The notes under the pieces are model-generated. The model saw nothing but the letters and a program-made list of their open reading frames with translations. It had not been told where the DNA came from and ran no database searches. A program made the translations under genes and the position numbers. This document shows positions 1-60,502 of a DNA stretch of 64,000 bases, piece by piece (position 1 is the first letter of the stretch; each line of letters starts with the position of its first letter). The DNA lies in NCBI GenBank assembly GCA_002392765.1, contig DGHT01000022.1, forward strand, positions 1,324 to 65,323, given 5' to 3'. This DNA comes from Verrucomicrobia bacterium UBA3841. GTDB taxonomy: Bacteria; Verrucomicrobiota; Kiritimatiellia; RFP12; UBA1067.

Positions 1-328
1 GAAAGCCGATGTTCTCATCATTACCCTTTCTTTACTCCCGTCTTTATGCCCGTTCTGATTATATATCCCCCGGACCGCAGGGGAGCCGCGCAGAGGAGAG
101 GTTCAGCCGACGCCCCCCGAGCAATTCGCGAAGGCGACGGCCGAGACGGCACCCCGCATTGAGCACACCTCTAGCGAAATTGCTTCGCAATTCTCACTCC
201 GTTCGGGGGATACCGACTTCGTCGACTTCGGCCTTTGGCCTCGGGGGATATGTTCCCCCAGTAAGCCGTTCCCCGTTCTGAACGACCGGGACGGTCGTTC
301 CCCCAGTAGGCTGTTCACTATTCCCCGC
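1..328. repeat. Repeat-rich non-coding region downstream of umuC (palindromic-element debris)
   Basis: ORFs 9..281 and 103..318 are R/S/P-rich shadows. Contains palindrome aattgcTTCgcaatt (178-192; GCGAAGC on the other strand), gggggatacc (205-214; reverse of the GGTATCCCCC boundary at 14738 and 22994), cgacttcg x2 (214-230) and an 8-bp-stem hairpin gaacgacc/ggtcgttc (280-300). Confidence 0.4.
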
Positions 329-14046: not shown

Positions 14047-14376
14047 TTACTTCCATTTATTTGCATAGAAACACTGTCCGCGCGTTTCAATTCGCGCGCG
14101 GCCGCAAATGCGGATATTTGTTTTCAGCTTTATCAGCTCGTATTTCTGGTCGCGTTCCGCGAGGTGCTGCAGCAGCTTCTCGCGGAACGTCCGCCGTTCC
14201 CATTTAAGGTGTTTTAGATGCGGATCGGCACGGTCGTACTTGCGCACCGTCGGCAATGCATGGTGGTCGCTGAGGTATTTCGCGCGCTTGCGGCAGGCGT
14301 CGGAGCAGTACCGCGTGTTTTTGTGTACTGCCCGAAACGCCTGTCCGCAGATGCCGCATGTTTTTTCCACAATCAT
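14047..14376 (-). CDS. Zinc-ribbon protein
   Basis: CGICGQAF...YCSDACRKRAKY Cys4 pattern. Confidence 0.5.
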   Translation of the reverse strand: MIVEKTCGICGQAFRAVHKNTRYCSDACRKRAKYLSDHHALPTVRKYDRADPHLKHLKWERRTFREKLLQHLAERDQKYELIKLKTNIRICGRARIETRGQCFYANKWK

Positions 14377-14699
14377 TGCGCGGAATCCCCCTTACGGTCT
14401 TCCCTCGCCTCCGCTCTCCGCCTGCGCCTGCGCTCGAGGGTGTGGACGTTCTCCTGGATGTAGGCGTTCGATGCCGCCGCCGCGCACTTTAGTACGCGGT
14501 GGAAGCTAGAGCCCGTCAGGCAGAATTTCTCCTCGCCGTCGATTCTGAATACAGCGACGATGTCGTCCTTGAACTTTTTGACGTGCAGGTTGTATACCTG
14601 CCCCTGGTTGTTTACGGCGAAGGCAGTCCAAAAGCCCTCGCCCTTGATGTACTTTGCCGGGAGTGTCCCGATCTTCAACTGGTTGTTGTCTTCTTGCAT
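14373..14699 (-). CDS. Hypothetical early protein
   Basis: Coupled start/stop within the operon. Non-shadow amino-acid composition in the N-terminal roughly 85 aa. Confidence 0.45.
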   Translation of the reverse strand: MQEDNNQLKIGTLPAKYIKGEGFWTAFAVNNQGQVYNLHVKKFKDDIVAVFRIDGEEKFCLTGSSFHRVLKCAAAASNAYIQENVHTLERRRRRRAEAREDRKGDSAQ

Positions 14700-14727: not shown

Positions 14728-14800
14728 CAAGGAGATGGGTATCCCCCGGCCTCAGGCCATCCGCGAAGCGGATGCCCTAGCAGGGGTGCGTCCCGCTCCG
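14728..14800. repeat. Palindromic element X (three stem-loops incl. GCGAAGC mini-hairpin) with CAAGGAGATG left boundary
   Basis: caaggagatg-ggtatccccc-ggcc tca ggcc-atccgc gaa gcggat-gccct agc agggg. About 55 bp nearly identical to 22994-23050. Confidence 0.85.
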
Positions 14801-14801
14801 T

Positions 14802-14975
14802 TCAATCCCTCGTATCGACCGTATCCGCGAGCGACGGCTTGCGGACCTCGCCCTCGTCGTCCTCGTCGTCGCCGTCGAGTACCGCCATGACCGTCGCCGC
14901 GACTATCGTGCCGACGACCCCGACCGCAACCCCGAACAGGAATACGGCCCATGCCATCATTGTATCTGCTATCAT
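14802..14975 (-). CDS. Possible 57-aa membrane protein
   Basis: MIADTMMAWAVFLFGVAVGVVGTIVAATVMAVLDGDDEDDEGE.. has one TM helix and an acidic tail. Preceded by the GGAGGGGAGGAATAAAAAATG junction. Below the track cutoff. Confidence 0.4.
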   Translation of the reverse strand: MIADTMMAWAVFLFGVAVGVVGTIVAATVMAVLDGDDEDDEGEVRKPSLADTVDTRD

Positions 14976-17651: not shown

Positions 17652-18107
17652 ATGGTGGAAACAACGACTATAGACGCGCTGCTGAATGTCGCGGTCAGAT
17701 ATGAACTCTACGGCGTAGATTTCATCCGGGATTTCGACTACGCCACGCTCTGCCGCGAATACAACGGCATCGGCCCGGAATGGGCGGGCGCTCCGATCCG
17801 CGAAAAGACTACGAAGTGGTTCTCCCTCTTCGAGCCCGCGGCGCTTATCCACGACATGCGCAACTACATGTCGGATGGCCGCAAGGAGGCATTCGACGCG
17901 GCGAACCTGGAGTTCCTCGCGAACTGTCGCAAGCTTGCAAACGCCGCGTATCCCTGGTACAGCTGGCGCAGATACCGCGCGCGCTTTGTCGCGCATCTCC
18001 TGTACGATTTTGTGGACGGCCCCGGCGGATGGATGGCTTGGCGCGAATGCTGGGAGAAGAGGAAAGAAAGAATACAAGGAGATGGAGCGTCCCGCTCCGT
18101 CGTATAG
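17652..18107 (+). CDS. Hypothetical protein at the endolysin position (YNGIG...HD motif)
   Basis: First late gene. EYNGIGPEW....AALIHDMRNY. The C-terminus is read through the cloverleaf element. No lysozyme, transglycosylase or amidase motif recognised. Confidence 0.5.
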   Translation: MVETTTIDALLNVAVRYELYGVDFIRDFDYATLCREYNGIGPEWAGAPIREKTTKWFSLFEPAALIHDMRNYMSDGRKEAFDAANLEFLANCRKLANAAYPWYSWRRYRARFVAHLLYDFVDGPGGWMAWRECWEKRKERIQGDGASRSVV

Positions 18108-18133
18108 ACGCGGCGGGACGCCGCATCTCCTTG
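18075..18133. repeat. 59-bp cloverleaf palindromic element (family Z), complete copy
   Basis: caaggagatg | gagcg tcc cgctc | cgtc gtata gacg | cggcg gga cgccg | catctccttg: 10-bp terminal stem plus three abutting stem-loops. Paralog at 60444-60502. Confidence 0.9.
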
Positions 18134-19903: not shown

Positions 19904-21349
19904 GTGAACGAAGCCGACACATCATATTTCCTGCCATACCAGGAAGCGTGGATCAACGACGACTCGCCGCTGAAGGTGGCAGAGAAGTCGCGCCGCGTCG
20001 GCTTCACCTACGCGTCGAGCTACCGCATGTTCCAGAAGTGCATGAGGCGCGGCAAGGGCTTCACGCAGTGGGTGAGCTCGCGCGACCGGCTGACGGCGCA
20101 GGAGCTCATACGCGACTACATCGCCATGTGGTGCAAGCTCGCCAACGTCGCCGCCCAGGGACTGACCGGCGAAGACATCCAGGTGATCGACACGGAGAAG
20201 GACATAACCGCCTTTGTCTGCACGTTCCCGAACGGCGCGCGCATCGTCTCGCTCTCCTCGACTCCGGAGGCGTTCGCCGGCAAGGGCGGCGACGTGTTCC
20301 TGGACGAAGTGGATCTGCACCGCGACTCGGGCGCGCTCATCGACATGGCGTATCCCTGCATCATGTGGGGCAACCAGCTTGAGATGGTCAGCGCCTACCG
20401 CGTGGACGGGTCGAAGGACACGCCCTTCGCGAAGCTCGTCGCCGAGGCGAAGAAGGACAACCCGCAGCATGCGTCGCTGCACCGCGTGACGATTCACGAC
20501 GCGGTGGCGCAGGGGCTCGTCGAGAAGATCAACGCGAAGTCGGGCCGCAGCCAGACGCGCGAGGAGTTCCTGCAGCAGACCCGCGCCGGATGCCGCACGC
20601 TCGCCGCATGGGAGTCGCAGTTCGAGTGCAAGGTGCAGGACGCGGGCGGGAAGCTGCTGCCGACGAAGATCCTCGCTCCGTGCGAAATGCCGGCGGAGGA
20701 GATCGCGGCGATCGAGCGCCGCTATCCGGACGCGCCGCGCTTCGCGGGCTTCGACATCGCCCGTCGCCGCCACGCGAGCGCCTGGAGCGAATGGCTGCAG
20801 ATCGGCGTCACATTCTTCCTCGTCAGGCGCGAGACCTTCCACGACATGGAGTTCGAGGCGCAGCGCAAGTTCCTCGAAGCTCAGATGCAGGGCCGCACTT
20901 CCAAGCGCATCACGCGGCTCGCCATGGACGCGACGGGCCTCGGCATGGAGACTGCGGAGTGGGCCGCCAAGAAATGGCCGGGCCGCGTCGACCAGGTGAA
21001 CCTGGAGTCGCACCGCCGCCACGAGATATGCATGATGTTCCAGGACTGGTTCAACACCGCGAACGCGAGGATCCCGGCGGACGCGGTACTTCGCGAGGAC
21101 TACCAGACGCCCGTCCTCAAGACCGCCGCGAACGGCAACGTGCGCGTGTCCGTCCCGGAGTTCGAGAACGACGAGGGCGAGACGTCTCACTGCGACGAGT
21201 TCATGGCGGGGGTGCTGGCGCGCTCCGCCGCCGACGCCGGCGGCGCGGAGCCCGCCATGCAGGCGACGGCGGAGATCGATGACGACGATTTGGGGAACGG
21301 GGAATGGGGAACGGGGAACGGAACCCTTACGAGAAGGAGCTTCATGTGA
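19904..21349 (+). CDS. Terminase large subunit (Mu gp28-like)
   Basis: GTG start at 19904. FLPYQEAWINDDSPLKVAEKSRRVGFTYASS.. N-terminal ATPase pattern. Followed by the portal gene. The C-terminus (LGNGEWGTGNGT) is encoded by a GGGGAAY array. Confidence 0.8.
   Translation: MNEADTSYFLPYQEAWINDDSPLKVAEKSRRVGFTYASSYRMFQKCMRRGKGFTQWVSSRDRLTAQELIRDYIAMWCKLANVAAQGLTGEDIQVIDTEKDITAFVCTFPNGARIVSLSSTPEAFAGKGGDVFLDEVDLHRDSGALIDMAYPCIMWGNQLEMVSAYRVDGSKDTPFAKLVAEAKKDNPQHASLHRVTIHDAVAQGLVEKINAKSGRSQTREEFLQQTRAGCRTLAAWESQFECKVQDAGGKLLPTKILAPCEMPAEEIAAIERRYPDAPRFAGFDIARRRHASAWSEWLQIGVTFFLVRRETFHDMEFEAQRKFLEAQMQGRTSKRITRLAMDATGLGMETAEWAAKKWPGRVDQVNLESHRRHEICMMFQDWFNTANARIPADAVLREDYQTPVLKTAANGNVRVSVPEFENDEGETSHCDEFMAGVLARSAADAGGAEPAMQATAEIDDDDLGNGEWGTGNGTLTRRSFM
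21292..21321. repeat. GGGGAAY heptamer array in the terminase 3' end
   Basis: ggggaacggggaatggggaacggggaacgg, identical 30-mer to 22942-22971. Same family as umuC 1287-1314. Confidence 0.95.
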
Positions 21350-23283
21350 TGAACATCCTAAGCGGCATCAGGCGGTTTTTCTTCCAGAAGGCGTCGAACG
21401 ACTTCGACGCGAACGAGGCGTTCCGCCGCAACCAGCTCAGGTACAACGCGCTGCGCGCGCTCGACCCGGACGTCCTGGTGCGGCACCTCGAGGCGTTCCA
21501 GCGCGGCGACATCTGCGGGCTCGAGCGCGTCATCGACGAGTTCGAGCAGCGCGAGGACAAGATGCGCATCGGCTCGTTCAAGATGGCGGCCGCCGTCTCG
21601 TCCAAGCCGTGGAAGGTGCAGATACGCCAGGGCGAGGAGGAGAACCCGCGCGCCAAGCTGCACCAGGAGCACTTGACGAAATTCTGGAACCGCGTCGAGG
21701 CGACGGACGCCTTCTGCCGCAATAGGAAAGGCGGGCTCAGGCTCCTAGTCAAGCAGATGATGAGCGCGCAGTCGCGCGTCTACTCCGTCCACGACATCTG
21801 CTGGAAGGTCAACGGCGACGGCACATTGAACGCGACGTTCACGCACGTTCCGGCGTGGTGCTTCGAGAACCGCACCGGACGGCTCAGGTACATCAGGAAC
21901 GACTGCGACACCGTCGGCGCGGAGATGCCCGACGGCGAATGGCTCGTCACCGTGGGCGAAGGCGTCGGCGTCGCGGCGGCGGTGATCGCCATGGCCAAGC
22001 GCCTCTCCTGGAACGACTGGCTGCTCTTCTCGGAGAAGTGCGGCATGCCGGTCATCCTGGGCAACACCAACGCGCAGCGCGATACGCCCGCATGGGCGGC
22101 GATGAGCCGCGCCATCCGCGCGATCGCGCCGAAGACCGGGCTTCTCGCCGACACCGGCACGACCCTGAACGCCGTCTCGATGGGCGCGGGCGGACAGAAC
22201 ACATACCGCGAGCTCGTCGACACGGTGGACCGTGCGATATCCGCGCTCTACCGCGGCGGGGACCTCGCCACGCAGTCGAGCGGACCGGACGCCGCGGGCG
22301 TCAACGCCCAGGCGGGCGAGTCGGAGCTGATGGACGACGACGGCTGCAAGATGGTCGCGGAGACGCTGCGCGACCAGGTTGAGAAGTTCGTGATCCGGTT
22401 CGAGCTCGGCGACTTCGAGCCGCTCGCGGAGATCGTCATCAACCCGCCAGCCGACACCGACGACGTCGACCGCGAGATGAAGATCGACACCCACCTCTCC
22501 GGACTCGGCGTGAAGCTGTCGAAGAAGGACGCGCTCGCCCGGTACGGCCGGACGGAGGCGGAGGACGAAAACGACGCCCTTGCCTTGTCGTCGGCACCTG
22601 TGACAGATTCCGATTCGCAGAAACTCACCGCTCAGGACATCGCATCGCTTATCTATCCGCTCAGAGCTGGTGGATATAAAATCTCCCAGCCGGTAGACGA
22701 GAGAGCGACAGGTCTCAAACTGGAGGAAATCACCCCTGGAGATGGAAGTGACGGCAGCAAAAACCAGCTTGCGAACGAGAAGACAGGCAAGACCCCCTTG
22801 CAAAACGACGAGAACCGCTTGCAAAACGCGCCGCGCGTTTCGGACGGACAAGGAGACCCCTCGGGCGAGGACGCGCTTGTAGAGGCTCTAAGCGGCCTGT
22901 TTGAGAAGTCGCTTGCCGAGGCAGCGGCTGACGCCGCCGCCGGGGAACGGGGAATGGGGAACGGGGAACGGGAACCGGTAGGGGCCGACCACCGGTATCC
23001 CCCAGCCGAAGGCTGTCCGCGAAGCGGATGCCCTAGCAGGGGTGCGGCCCAGGAAGAGCTTGCGAACTCCACCGACGCCCAGGGCAACGAGCACGCCGAA
23101 GCCGGATCCAATAACGGTGGCCAGTTCGTCAGCAAGGGTGAGGGCGGCGAAGCCCACACGCCTGAACAAAAGAAACGCATCGACGGCACGATGGCCGTGC
23201 AAACGGTTGTTCCGGACACGAAGCGCAAGACGCTCTTCATAACTTCGACAAGGATTGAAAAGCGAAAGGACGGGCACTTATAG
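21349..23283 (+). CDS. Portal protein (Mu gp29/DUF935-like) with extended C-terminus
   Basis: ATG overlaps the terminase stop and GAGAAGGAG lies upstream. MNILSGIRRFF..FRRNQLRYNALRALDPDVL..FQRGD. About 130 extra C-terminal residues contain repeat-element-encoded sequence. Confidence 0.8.
   Translation: MNILSGIRRFFFQKASNDFDANEAFRRNQLRYNALRALDPDVLVRHLEAFQRGDICGLERVIDEFEQREDKMRIGSFKMAAAVSSKPWKVQIRQGEEENPRAKLHQEHLTKFWNRVEATDAFCRNRKGGLRLLVKQMMSAQSRVYSVHDICWKVNGDGTLNATFTHVPAWCFENRTGRLRYIRNDCDTVGAEMPDGEWLVTVGEGVGVAAAVIAMAKRLSWNDWLLFSEKCGMPVILGNTNAQRDTPAWAAMSRAIRAIAPKTGLLADTGTTLNAVSMGAGGQNTYRELVDTVDRAISALYRGGDLATQSSGPDAAGVNAQAGESELMDDDGCKMVAETLRDQVEKFVIRFELGDFEPLAEIVINPPADTDDVDREMKIDTHLSGLGVKLSKKDALARYGRTEAEDENDALALSSAPVTDSDSQKLTAQDIASLIYPLRAGGYKISQPVDERATGLKLEEITPGDGSDGSKNQLANEKTGKTPLQNDENRLQNAPRVSDGQGDPSGEDALVEALSGLFEKSLAEAAADAAAGERGMGNGEREPVGADHRYPPAEGCPRSGCPSRGAAQEELANSTDAQGNEHAEAGSNNGGQFVSKGEGGEAHTPEQKKRIDGTMAVQTVVPDTKRKTLFITSTRIEKRKDGHL
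22942..23050. repeat. GGGGAAY array plus element X copy, in-frame inside the portal gene
   Basis: 30-mer array 22942-22971, then ggtatccccc-cagcc gaa ggctg-tccgc gaa gcgga-ccct agc aggg (22994-23050). Translated as GERGMGNGERE...YPPAEGCPRSGCPSRGAAQ. Confidence 0.9.
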
Positions 23284-25802: not shown

Positions 25803-25895
25803 AGTTGAAAGGTTGAAAAGTTGAATAGTTGAGAAGTTGAACAGAGGCAAGAACCTTTCAACCTTTTAACCTTTCAACTTTTCAACTTTTCAACC
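25803..25895. repeat. Long hairpin whose arms are tandem 8-mers (GTTGAAAN x5 / NTTTCAAC x5)
   Basis: agttgaaaggttgaaaagttgaatagttgagaagttgaac - agaggcaagaa - cctttcaaccttttaacctttcaacttttcaacttttcaacc, immediately after the capsid stop. Confidence 0.9.
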
Positions 25896-25899
25896 TGGG

Positions 25900-26361
25900 A
25901 TGGAGCGAAGCGACATGAACTGGAGAGCAGTTGACGAAAACGACCTCGCGGCGACGACCTCGCAGGGCGAGATCGACGCATTCCGCCAGGACGCCTCGCT
26001 CGACGGCTCCGATCCCGTGGCGCGGCTCCTTAAGCGCACCGTCGCGATGGTTCGCGGCTACATCGCCACGAACGGCAAGGTGCGCCGCATGGGGCCCTCG
26101 GGGACTCTCCCCGAGAGCCTCATATCCCCCGCGATGGACTACGCCGCGGCGGACGTCCTCAAGCGACTCGCCGTGCCGCTCAACGACGACCGGCGCAAGG
26201 CGCGCGAGCGCGCGGAGGACCTCTTCAAGGACGTCGCGGCGGGGAAGTACACTCCGGAGAGCGACGACGCCGACGACACCGCGTCTACCGACGGTCCGGC
26301 GATCGAAGTAGTCTGCACCGTCCGCGACCGCGTGAGCGCGGCAAAACTGGAGGGACTGTGA
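25900..26361 (+). CDS. Head-tail adaptor, Mu gp36/DUF1320-like
   Basis: 153 aa after the capsid gene. ..EIDAFRQDA...RTVAMVRGYI..LPESLISPAMDYAAADVLKRL.. resembles the DUF1320 pattern. Confidence 0.45.
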   Translation: MERSDMNWRAVDENDLAATTSQGEIDAFRQDASLDGSDPVARLLKRTVAMVRGYIATNGKVRRMGPSGTLPESLISPAMDYAAADVLKRLAVPLNDDRRKARERAEDLFKDVAAGKYTPESDDADDTASTDGPAIEVVCTVRDRVSAAKLEGL

Positions 26362-28824: not shown

Positions 28825-29388
28825 CTCTCTTGCGCGGCGCTGGCGGCGGCACGCGAGAAGGTAGAGCCTGCGACACCCGCGCGGGCCCCCGCGTCCGAAA
28901 CCCCGGCCGCCGGGGAAATTTCGCGGATGGGCGGGGAAATCACCCGGGCCGCCGGGTTTTACACCCGGGCCGCCGGGTTTTCTTCCCCGGCCGCCGGGAA
29001 CGCCGAAAGCGTCCTCGCCGCGGCGTTTGCGTCGGCGAACGCGGCGGATATTCCGGCAATCCTCGCCGCGGCGTTTGCGTCGGCGAACGCGGCGGATATT
29101 CCGGCTATCCTCGCCGCGCTTCCGGCGGACATGCTGGATTCCGCCGCGCCGGAAATTGCCGCGACGCTGTACGCGGCGCTACTCAAATCTGCCGCGCCCA
29201 GCCTCTCGCCTGCCGCGCTTGCCGACGCAAAACGCGAGTGGTACGAGCGATTTGCCGCGGACGGCGGCTCGCGCGCAAGTTGGATTCTGCGGCGCGCCAA
29301 GACGCTTGCGGAGCGCGGCGAATCGACGGACGCTCTGCGCGCGGCGTTTTTGTCGACGCTCGAGCGTTGGATGCAAGAGGAGGATTGA
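28780..29388 (+). CDS. Hypothetical Ala-rich protein with internal tandem duplication
   Basis: Contains LAAAFASANAADIPAI x2 and RAAGF x2. Confidence 0.45.
   Translation: MKPIRNFTLYTLHFTLSCAALAAAREKVEPATPARAPASETPAAGEISRMGGEITRAAGFYTRAAGFSSPAAGNAESVLAAAFASANAADIPAILAAAFASANAADIPAILAALPADMLDSAAPEIAATLYAALLKSAAPSLSPAALADAKREWYERFAADGGSRASWILRRAKTLAERGESTDALRAAFLSTLERWMQEED
29013..29119. repeat. 48-bp tandem duplication (about 2.2 copies)
   Basis: cctcgccgcggcgtttgcgtcggcgaacgcggcggatattccggcWat at 29013 and 29061, with a partial third copy. Confidence 0.9.
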
Positions 29389-35194: not shown

Positions 35195-36042
35195 CAGTAC
35201 CCTCGGGTTGTTATCGGCAACCGATAGAGCAGGAAGGCATAGACGCGTCCGGCGCAAAGACGTTTAATTACGTGCTTAAGGGCCCATATTCTTCCCTGCA
35301 GACTTTCAAGAACAGTCTGACGGGCGGGCAGGAGATTGAATCCGGGTGGGGGTTCGCGTCCGCCATGCTCAACCGCAATCCTGGCGGTCTGGGCACATTG
35401 ACCATAACATGCAAACCGATCGCAGATGGAGAATCAGGCGGCGGGTCCGATGCGTCCACAACGCCACTAGATGAAATATGGCAGATTAAATCATGCCGCA
35501 ACGACATGTCGGTTTTAGCATATTGCGGCAAGGGTCCGTCAAATCCATGCCGGGAATGGATCGAAGCATGGATGAAAGAGCCCGACGGCGAGCTGGCGAA
35601 GGCCGACTCGTTCAGGAAGCCTGACGGTGAAGTTTTTGCCATACTTGCTGGGTCGGAGGGTTCATCGGAGAGTTCAGGAGCCGAAACCCGCGGGCAGGCG
35701 ACCGTCGAGGTCATGGGCAAGTTGCGGGAAGGGAAAGAATCGGTAATGCGGTTTTATCCGATGCTGATTTGCACCAAGATATATTCCGTCGCCCCGGCTT
35801 CAGTGTACGAAAATCTCTCTTATATAGACACGCCAAACCCCGGCACGACCACCAAGAAGCCGGGAAATCTATCAACAATCATCAGCAATCACGAGTGGCT
35901 TAAATGCCAAGATGATTGCGAACAGATGCAAAACGGAAACTGGCGGCGCATCCAGGCCTGGATCGGCGCGCCCTCCTGGGACGACAATTTCTACGGCACC
36001 GCGAACCGCTGGCCCATGCCATACTCGCACAGCAACAGCTGA
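35185..36042 (+). CDS. Hypothetical tail-tip protein (distal tail position)
   Basis: Overlaps the tape-measure stop. 285 aa. No recognised motif. Confidence 0.4.
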   Translation: MAITVPSGCYRQPIEQEGIDASGAKTFNYVLKGPYSSLQTFKNSLTGGQEIESGWGFASAMLNRNPGGLGTLTITCKPIADGESGGGSDASTTPLDEIWQIKSCRNDMSVLAYCGKGPSNPCREWIEAWMKEPDGELAKADSFRKPDGEVFAILAGSEGSSESSGAETRGQATVEVMGKLREGKESVMRFYPMLICTKIYSVAPASVYENLSYIDTPNPGTTTKKPGNLSTIISNHEWLKCQDDCEQMQNGNWRRIQAWIGAPSWDDNFYGTANRWPMPYSHSNS

Positions 36043-36048
36043 AACCCG

Positions 36049-36080
36049 CCTTCAACTTTTCAACCTTTCAACTTTTCAAC
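36049..36080. repeat. 8-mer array YTTTCAAC x4
   Basis: cttcaac ttttcaac ctttcaac ttttcaac. Same family and orientation as the right arm of the 25803-25895 hairpin. Confidence 0.9.
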
Positions 36081-36086
36081 CGTTAA

Positions 36087-36761
36087 ATGATACAAATTCC
36101 GCAGAAAGGAGAACCGCTTCGAGCCGATTGGGCCGCCCAAATCACGGGCCGCGTCAACTCGTTGGCGCCGATAGGCTCGCCGAGGATGCTGGTTCGCGAC
36201 GGCATTGGCGGCTTCGGCAGCGAACCGTGTCCGCCAAACCACCGCGACAGGCGCGGTATCGCCAGCAGGACGTCGCCGCCAGGTTGCTTCGAGCTTGTTG
36301 AGCGTACTGTCACGCGCAATAACATTTCGTTAATCGAACATTTCTTCGTCAATCAATACTACATGGTCGGAGACCTTTTGAAAAAATGCTCGGTGATTGA
36401 CGGGGAAGTAGAATCAGAACAGTTTGTCATTTCTTTGGAATCGATCCTGCTTTCATCTATCGGCGAGAATGTGCAATCTGGAGAAATAACATCATGGGTA
36501 ATGCTCCAGATAGATGCACGGGGCGATGCCTATCCAAGGGGCAATGGCGAGACGGAGGAAAACGACGAGGCTTCTCCGCAAATTAAAATATTTATGGATT
36601 TCAACGAGGTTGAAGAATGCCAGAGAGACCTCGACTTTCATACTATACCCCTTTTCATAGTGCAATTTCAATACGTTGCCGAGGAAGAGGTCATTAAAGG
36701 GCTGGAAATCACATGCGACTTTCGCCGTGGTCTCTTTGGCCAGCAAGTGGAGCTTATATGA
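36087..36761 (+). CDS. Hypothetical tail-tip protein
   Basis: 224 aa. GC content drops visibly within this gene, from about 36300 onward. Confidence 0.4.
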   Translation: MIQIPQKGEPLRADWAAQITGRVNSLAPIGSPRMLVRDGIGGFGSEPCPPNHRDRRGIASRTSPPGCFELVERTVTRNNISLIEHFFVNQYYMVGDLLKKCSVIDGEVESEQFVISLESILLSSIGENVQSGEITSWVMLQIDARGDAYPRGNGETEENDEASPQIKIFMDFNEVEECQRDLDFHTIPLFIVQFQYVAEEEVIKGLEITCDFRRGLFGQQVELI

Positions 36762-39088: not shown

Positions 39089-39093
39089 GCGTT
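39089..39093. repeat. Target-site duplication, right copy
   Basis: gcgtt directly after the terminal CA (39087-39088). Confidence 0.75.
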
Positions 39094-39200
39094 TGCGGGC
39101 AAAGCGGGGACGGGGAGTTGTGAAATTGTGGCAACTGGGAAAGTCAGCATCCTGCCGGCGGAATCAAGGAGATGGAGCATCTTGCTCCGTCACTGCCGGG
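39089..39200. repeat. Right half of dispersed element Y (plus truncated cloverleaf copy at 39165)
   Basis: gcgtttgcgggcaaagcggggacggggagttgtgaaattgtggcaactgggaaagtcagcatcctgccggcggaatcaaggagatggagc.. is near-identical to 60368-60474. Confidence 0.9.
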
Positions 39201-60325: not shown

Positions 60326-60502
60326 TGTGGTATTTTTCTCTCGCAGAGGCGCAGAGTCGCAGAGATGGCGTTTGCGGGCAAAGCGGGGACGGGGAGTTGT
60401 GAAATTGCGGCAACTGGGAAAGTCGGCATCCTGCCGGCGGAATCAAGGAGATGGAGCTTCCAGCTCCGTCTTGCGGACGCGGCAGGATGCCGCATCTCCT
60501 TG
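60326..60502. repeat. Uninterrupted copy of element Y followed by a complete 59-bp cloverleaf element
   Basis: 60326-60370 matches 6552-6589 and 60368-60474 matches 39089-39195. Cloverleaf at 60444-60502: caaggagatg|gagct tcc agctc|cgtc ttgcg gacg|cggca gga tgccg|catctccttg. Confidence 0.9.

Follow-up and report, generated by a model that had tools for sequence, protein, structure and literature searches.

Rickettsia palindromic elements (RPEs) have been described as 'selfish DNA inside protein-coding genes' (work of Ogata et al. in 2000 and 2002, via PMC10969869). Here we analyse a 64,000-nt stretch of Verrucomicrobia bacterium UBA3841, a member of the Kiritimatiellia (contig DGHT01000022.1, positions 1,324 to 65,323; hereafter the window), in which the portal gene of a Mu-like prophage carries a 48-nt structured repeat that we call the core. 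The core belongs to a large repeat family, interspersed, structured and non-coding, that is specific to gut and rumen Kiritimatiellia. It is probably a non-autonomous mobile (selfish) element with RPE-like behaviour that is tolerated in the portal linker.

Comparison with RPEs yields a likeness of behaviour and a difference of kind. According to PMC10969869, RPEs share with the core that they are interspersed palindromic repeats without coding capacity of their own; that they are frequent, in frame, in unrelated housekeeping open reading frames (ORFs), adding a short peptide to the host protein; and that about one third to half of the copies are intragenic. RPEs measure ~100–150 nt in that source, versus 48 nt for the core, and their hosts are reduced intracellular Rickettsia, whereas the core resides in metagenome-assembled genomes (MAGs) of Kiritimatiellia, free-living gut anaerobes of another phylum. 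Unlike RPEs, the core has a cloverleaf structure with two GNA mini-hairpins, nests in the tips of other repeats, is read in four frames and both orientations, and also occurs in a prophage structural gene. Size and host thus appear to set it apart from RPE-1 to RPE-10, with behaviour alike. That behaviour is already known from RPEs (PMC10969869). A sequence-only reading of this DNA had drawn the Rickettsia analogy; it is apt for behaviour (in frame, housekeeping ORFs), and we make no claim of membership in the RPE family.

Repetitive extragenic palindromic (REP) sequences and their relatives are the next closest group. REP/BIME, REPIN (RAYT, HUH Y1) and IS200/IS605-derived elements resemble the core as short GC-rich hairpin repeats in many copies that lack target-site duplications and are recognised by structure. 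IS110-family elements are known to target REPs (PMC1525189, PMC11208160), and they target the core as well (loci L198 and L213 here). Inverted doublets of the REP type also have a counterpart (L182). REPs have a GTAG head, as against the GTAT start of the core, although the carrier hairpins described below do have GGTAGGG. In contrast to these systems, core copies show no strand bias and had no RAYT/TnpA gene nearby in our search, the latter being a weak negative. A large fraction of core copies is intragenic, whereas REPs by definition lie outside genes. Miniature inverted-repeat transposable elements (Correia, ERIC, RUP, Nezha) are likewise small, non-autonomous interspersed repeats with occasional in-frame fusions (PMC10969869). 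Unlike them, the core has no target duplication and no real terminal inverted repeat, and it is far shorter.

The portal copy and its variable junction

The portal gene carries the core within a nested composite. The ORF matches Pfam Portal_Mu (1.6e-44, aa 93–415) and the PHROG portal family, and the prophage is transposable, also encoding MuA-like and MuB-like proteins, a large terminase, a protease and a major head protein. The sequence-only reading had paired a segment of this gene (22994–23050) with an intergenic one at 14738–14796, each with two stem-loops of given sequence, and this was borne out. Positions 14738–14794 and 22994–23050 form a 57-nt direct repeat with 89% identity and share the exact 31-mer TCCGCGAAGCGGATGCCCTAGCAGGGGTGCG (2 matches versus 0.00 expected; reproduced by none of 100 window shuffles). 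The first stem-loop (SL1) differs in sequence but still pairs, with ggcc-tca-ggcc at the intergenic site and (c)agcc-gaa-ggct(g) in the portal, and the second (SL2) is tccGCGAAGCgga in both. The proposed in-frame reading also holds, as the portal ORF runs through array and element as GERGMGNGEREPVGADHRYPPAEGCPRSGCPSRGAAQ without a stop.

Three repeats, each from a family of the host genome, are stacked at this site. Segment 22942–23050 combines an array of GGGGAAY units with a REP-like carrier hairpin (GGTAGGGGCCG...CGGCCC) that bears a core at its tip (Table 1); it is not one clean insertion but a composite at a module junction. Within the array, 22942–22966 fits a G-quadruplex pattern (at least 4 G runs of at least 3, loops of 1–7 nt), as a motif match only. 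The portal core is identical to the commonest variant of the family. Its flanks, which we term type F, also surround cores at four loci of one MAG (L147, L168, L178, L213), and the empty type-F carrier, TAGGGGCCGACCACCGG^GCGGCCC, is found in L178 and L213.

Portal homologues diverge at precisely this point. The window protein has its Portal_Mu domain to ~aa 415, then a long variable tail, then a PBECR3 remnant, and hundreds of close relatives come from Kiritimatiellae MAGs. In an alignment with 16 relatives, near-identity extends through ...KSLAEAAA and resumes at ...EELANSTDAQGNEHA, with a lineage-specific short segment between. Close homologues (82–86% identity, flanks with ~95% DNA identity) hold unrelated short cassettes there; in L002, whose flanks are ~95% DNA-identical, the place of the ~105 nt of the window is taken by another sequence of ~60 nt, GC-rich and hairpin-like. 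Other relatives have GTCCCAG or CGCAGAG-type arrays at the junction (the CGCAGAG type in 7 proteins among the 120 homologues listed), and P0030 has a GGGGAAY-type array. Core-derived peptide, in any of the four open frames, is absent from all 119 other homologues listed and present in the window protein alone. To the question that the sequence-only reading had raised, whether related portals all have an equivalent segment, the answer is that close homologues have none and that the segment lies at a hypervariable junction.

The junction also separates protein modules. Downstream of the insert the window portal stays in frame with the conserved sequence of P0002, and comparison of 23051–23283 with that protein reveals a PBECR3 nuclease remnant with an in-frame deletion of ~150 residues (KKRI^...^DGTMAV). 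Relatives have PBECR1, 2 or 3 at this junction: in some the portal ends right after the linker and a PBECR2 nuclease forms a separate overlapping gene, and in others PBECR1 or PBECR3 is fused. Because homologues vary here in both cassettes and nuclease modules, the site reads, from sequence, as a module junction, effectively a translated spacer between the portal body and a decayed PBECR3 module.

This arrangement raises the prospect that repeats at the junction are recombination substrates for swapping PBECR1, 2 or 3 cassettes and are selected for that reason. The break between the conserved portal and the alternative C-terminal module does fall exactly in the repeat-filled linker, where several relatives have arrays of the two kinds just described (GGGGAAY in P0030, CGCAGAG in seven proteins). 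But the core occurs in just 1 of the 120 homologues listed, the cassettes of different relatives share little homology, and cassettes of the same kinds fill loops of leucyl-tRNA synthetase (LeuRS) without any module exchange. We consider selection for module swapping very unlikely.

The window holds further copies of the core (Table 1). The second is flanked by early genes on the minus strand (14373..14699 and 14802..14975). Its SL1 is unique, so the two full window copies are independent insertions and not a within-phage duplication. A third, diverged copy has a compensated SL2 (AATTGC-GAA-GCAATT). It coincides with the GCGAAGC that the sequence-only reading had picked out at 182–188 as a link to the portal element; that link stands for the copy and fails for the heptamer itself, which is no commoner than chance. 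Bare GCGAAGC occurs 26 times in the window versus 27 expected, not a significant difference, and we rejected it as a signal on its own.

Table 1. Coordinates of the core copies, their carriers and associated features in the window
Feature	Position	Strand	Remarks
Mu-like portal gene	21349..23283 (ORF from 21304/21349)	+	644 aa, identical to P0001 in public assemblies
GGGGAAY array, 5 heptamer units	22942..22976	+	G-quadruplex-type motif; translated GERGMGNGERE
Left arm, type-F carrier	22977..22995	+	GGTAGGGGCCGACCACCGG; GGGCCG pairs with right arm (fold)
48-nt core, 16 codons	22996..23043	+	translated YPPAEGCPRSGCPSRG, offset 0 from ATG 21349; 82.3 bits (covariance model)
Right arm, type-F carrier	23044..23050	+	GCGGCCC
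Second core copy	14740..14787	+	intergenic, diverged SL1 GGCC-TCA-GGCC; 73.2 bits (covariance model)
Carrier-X repeat CAAGGAGATGG^GCGTCCCGCTCC, split by core	14728..14801	+	
Empty carrier-X hairpin	18075..18133	+	paralogue of 14728 site without core
Diverged third copy	166..213	-	contains GCGAAGC of 182-188; 30.2 bits, E ~1e-6 (covariance model of family)
Partial core copy	224-251	-	adjoins third copy
Second GGGGAAY array	21292..21326	+	94% identical to portal array; in large terminase C-terminal tail, just upstream of portal start

A structured repeat family of Kiritimatiellia

The similarity first seen between two window sites is widely reproduced. An exact 22-mer of the core matched at least 120 metagenome loci, mostly from rumen samples, and a pattern that fixed TATCCCCC and SL2 and left the 3' half free matched at least 104 genome loci. 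Kiritimatiellia, or MAGs that bear the label Verrucomicrobia or Lentisphaerae, account for nearly all genome loci listed, and individual MAGs contain several copies. Most genome matches listed retain the 3' half that the pattern left free, ATGCCCTAGCAGGGGTG; the few matches in other phyla without it are chance. Full cores do occur in an Eggerthellaceae MAG (L139) and a Faecalibacterium MAG (L174), on short contigs with flanks typical of Kiritimatiellia, and these MAGs of unrelated phyla are probably cases of binning contamination. Three scans of IMG/VR gave no true copy (twelve 17-mer matches, with unrelated flanks, are chance), blastn against GenBank phages found no copy of the core, and full-text literature searches returned nothing on repeats of such kind in Kiritimatiellae.

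We analysed 187 full copies in 91 flank contexts (clusters). The core consists of TATCCCCC, SL1, a G, SL2 (tccGCGAAGCgga), a tail containing CTAG, and GGGGT, and it measures 48 nt in 147 of the 187 copies.

Compensatory change supports the helices. SL1 variants are compensated (AGCC/GGCT, GGCC/GGCC, AACC/GGTT, AGGC/GCCT, GGAC/GTCC), with 3 pairs changed on both sides, and the observed score was reached by 0 of 500 shuffles. SL2 varies in diverged copies (TCCGC/GCGGA, TCGCC/GGCGA, CTGCC/GGCAG, AATTGC/GCAATT); with these added, it has 4 covarying pairs and 99% of cells paired. The minimum-energy fold as single-stranded DNA is a four-way junction, or cloverleaf (z = -3.3), with three arms, SL1, SL2 and a small TGC-CCTA-GCA hairpin, on a closing CCCC/GGGG helix. 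The whole cloverleaf has 9 covarying pairs, a number that none of 500 shuffles reached, in alignments whose diverged copies were fitted to the covariance model and so favour the structure. Of the three stem-loops proposed from sequence alone, SL1 and SL2 are thus supported by covariation, and the third hairpin, like the closing helix, rests on one compensatory event. A third stem-loop drawn as CCCT/AGGG, another candidate, fits equally well and is indistinguishable from CCCC/GGGG plus TGC/GCA.

The hairpin loops follow a known rule of DNA stability. Nearly every loop of SL1 and SL2 is C(GNA)G, in which each of the four bases occurs as N, or GNNA (GAA, GCA, GTA, GGA, GACA). The GNA rule describes unusually stable DNA mini-hairpins and holds on one strand only (PMC13037366). 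The core's SL2 contains GCGAAGC, an instance of the d(GCGNAGC) mini-hairpin of Hirao and colleagues (PMC13037366), and its SL1 loops obey the same loop rule. Since GNA loops are the rule in both stem-loops, special stability of d(GCGAAGC) in the core is plausible. The mini-hairpin is a biophysical motif, whereas the core is a genetic element, and the relevance of one to the other is inferred.

A diverged subfamily, variant C (L195:6613-6660, L222:6099-6146, L225:1719-1766), changes CCCCC to CCACC, CCCT to CACT and GGGG to GTGG together. The joint change suggests alternative pairings, or else a single recognition motif whose three copies evolve together.

Copies in genes, carriers and other repeats

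About one third of independent sites lie in conserved housekeeping ORFs. By our own simple codon-usage caller, which is crude, 29 of the 91 clusters (187 copies) are inside ORFs, 3 are partial and 59 intergenic. The sequence-only reading had proposed counting the fraction in ORFs and in frame; the copies counted are in frame and in both orientations, 15 clusters co-oriented with the gene and 14 opposite. In-ORF copies use just the four stop-free frames, the other two meeting TAG from CTAG. The 48-nt form accounts for all 29 in-ORF clusters, versus none of the 12 clusters of 49–54-nt forms.

Domain matches place these inserts inside known proteins. Pfam domains flank the insert on both sides at two sites of MetRS and in LeuRS, AlaRS, carbamoyl-phosphate synthase, UxuA and a dTDP-glucose-dehydratase-like protein; a macro-domain protein has just one domain and carries the insert behind it, in the tail. 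LeuRS alleles (L162, L182, L059) are ~95% identical and differ at three hypervariable loops, where cores, inverted core doublets (both copies in frame) and unrelated tandem arrays replace one another between strains. Presence and absence at orthologous sites is seen at the three LeuRS sites and in the portal.

The core could also be a cis-acting RNA (terminator, attenuator, mRNA stabiliser or small RNA) whose portal copy regulates downstream head genes. Its structure is supported by covariation, its intergenic copies often occupy short spacers between co-directional genes, and the protease gene begins ~300 nt downstream of the portal copy. Copies are, however, oriented at random with respect to transcription, at 15 versus 14 inside genes and 15 versus 11 between co-directional genes, which makes such a role unlikely; transcripts cover both orientations, although the GNA loops form on one strand only. 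The element is not followed by a U-run. Rfam gave no match at the gathering score in the window or in 20 loci with RNA-like flanks, and nothing relevant at E up to 10 over 22900–23100; ARAGORN found no tRNA or tmRNA. We give the RNA explanation hardly any credence, less than any other considered here.

The core sits in DNA that is itself repetitive. Its immediate flanks are recurring contexts and repeats in their own right: hairpins, CGCAGAG arrays and GGGGAAC arrays, with cores nested inside GGGGAAY-type arrays in L221, L140 and L184. Many pairs of empty and filled carriers were found, such as carrier X in the window, empty at 18075 and filled at 14728. In all of them, one carrier nucleotide is replaced by R + 48 nt, a net gain of 48 nt with no target-site duplication, and the right flank starts G(C/A)G. 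The core begins (G/A)TAT and the carriers GGTAGGG; the core ends share just CCCC/GGGG, without a real terminal inverted repeat. Complementarity of the flanks across the core is 3.92 versus 3.36 ± 0.11 by permutation, an excess that stems from ~1/4 of copies and is therefore read as nesting at the tips of carrier hairpins. An outer flank helix as a universal part of the element was rejected on the same count.

The core is in turn entered by other elements. An IS110-family element (Pfam DEDD_Tnp_IS110 and Transposase_20) sits at the core's CTAG at L198:529-1824 (minus strand) and in L213 near 6590. Its junction, ATGCCCTAG|ATATAATGGGAAC..., is identical in these two different flank contexts, which identifies the core as the target site. 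Some core copies carry internal deletions. In L091 (~1500–1560), a 26-nt insert in the C-run of the core has a perfect 20-nt palindrome, TTATCAGGAATTCCTGATAA, and forms a small nested element.

These features bear on whether the core instead serves the host as a DNA signal, be it a REP/BIME-type site (for gyrase, IHF or a nucleoid protein) or a site of single-strand initiation or priming on GNA mini-hairpins, with prophage copies as by-products or in the same role. Strong conservation, even in the unconstrained 3' half, fits a signal, as do helices kept by compensation and the joint change of CCCCC, CCCT and GGGG in variant C, which is expected of co-evolving recognition motifs; sites recognised by primase in phage G4 and in RSF1010 ssiA do have C(GNA)G hairpins (PMC13037366). 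Yet near-identical alleles differ in presence, copies lie inside essential ORFs in either orientation, orientation is unbiased relative to GC skew, and copies are broken by the IS110-family element, by internal deletions and by the nested palindrome. A host signal is unlikely on balance, though less so than the recombination and RNA explanations.

Three other known classes of element were ruled out. Differences between copies are not adenine-specific, as a diversity-generating retroelement would require; attC sites have R''/R' core sites, which are lacking here; and a DNA uptake sequence would be shorter and less structured.

Further repeats mark the window. Heptamer arrays (GGGGAAY, GAGGGAT and C-rich counterparts) lie in frame in umuC (minus strand; 491–514 and 1287–1372) and umuD (1714–1737 and 1851–1901), and the in-frame arrays fall in the IMS polymerase domain, the S24 peptidase domain and the terminase C-terminus. 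The G-rich arrays, five in number, all carry their G strand on plus, whichever way the gene runs. G-quadruplex-type motifs number 7 versus 1.8 expected, and 5 of the 7 are heptamer arrays. Octamer arrays (CTTTTCAAC/CCTTTCAA) at 25832–25901 and 36026–36095 immediately precede two plus-strand late genes (starts 25900 and 36087) and may be a shared regulatory or promoter element. A 103-nt direct repeat with 95% identity (39089–39191 and 60368–60470, 21.3 kb apart) contains a carrier-X hairpin, and a block of very large ORFs on the minus strand (2136, 1452, 972 and 1184 aa) lies between its two copies. At 29012–29107 a 48-nt unit stands twice in tandem (98% identity), near a cluster of CGGGCCGCCGGG-containing repeats at 28882–28998, inside or beside a plus-strand ORF.

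Probable mobility of the core and its implications

The core bears the signs of a mobile repeat: 91 flank contexts, empty and filled carriers, presence/absence differences, and elements nested in one another. A non-autonomous mobile element of the kind proposed at the outset would behave as follows. Copies that land in permissive protein loops or linkers would be translated and persist, an expectation that follows from the 16-codon length and the four open frames. The prophage would have taken two or three copies from its repeat-rich host while resident, one of them placed in the disordered linker between portal and nuclease, where insertion would have little or no effect on the phage. The mobilising enzyme may act on single-stranded hairpin DNA, in the manner of HUH/RAYT proteins, since hairpins, lack of duplication and a one-sided flank motif recall HUH-type single-strand transposition.

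Several points weigh against a mobile repeat. Without inverted repeats beyond CCCC/GGGG and without duplication, the element fits no defined mechanism. A phmmer search of all locus ORFs (~1.5 Mb) for a Y1/HUH transposase, with IS200 and IS608 TnpA queries, found none, which is a weak negative. Orientation bias is absent relative to gene strand (32/57) and to local GC skew (30/57), and on the latter figure the strand bias of IS200/IS605-type elements is not seen. The very strong conservation of the core and its maintained helices could equally mean a host function. Portal and LeuRS alleles differ by cassette replacement and not by clean insertion, so the order of insertion events is not readable from them. 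Lastly, the one-third figure for copies in ORFs rests on the crude caller, with 8 in-ORF cases verified by Pfam.

A bolder form of the mobile-repeat explanation is conceivable, and we hold it only tentatively, as more doubtful than not. In it, the 48-nt cloverleaf would be active mobile DNA of a mechanistically undescribed kind (no duplication, no inverted ends, no linked transposase) that seeks the tips of hairpins and arrays and is shaped to 16 codons and four stop-free frames for colonising essential genes. Together with heptamer arrays, it would be a main source of the variation that loops and linkers show in proteins of gut Kiritimatiellia and of their phages.

In-frame palindromic repeats in coding genes have so far been treated as a peculiarity of Rickettsia, and they are now found in an unrelated, uncultured lineage of the gut and rumen. 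The core is a tractable case, being much smaller, with a well-defined structure and with targets that include aminoacyl-tRNA synthetases and a phage portal. In work on rumen metagenomes such cassettes will be a source of error for gene calling, the clustering of proteins and strain typing, and the peptides predicted from the core (YPPAEGCPRSGCPSRG, RIPQPKAVREADALAGV, SPLLGHPLRGQPAAGGY and TPARASASRTAFGWGI) could serve as probes for its translation in metaproteomics. With the core it becomes possible to study by what route such repeats travel, what lets proteins accommodate them, and whether the repeat load of a host is sampled by its prophages.

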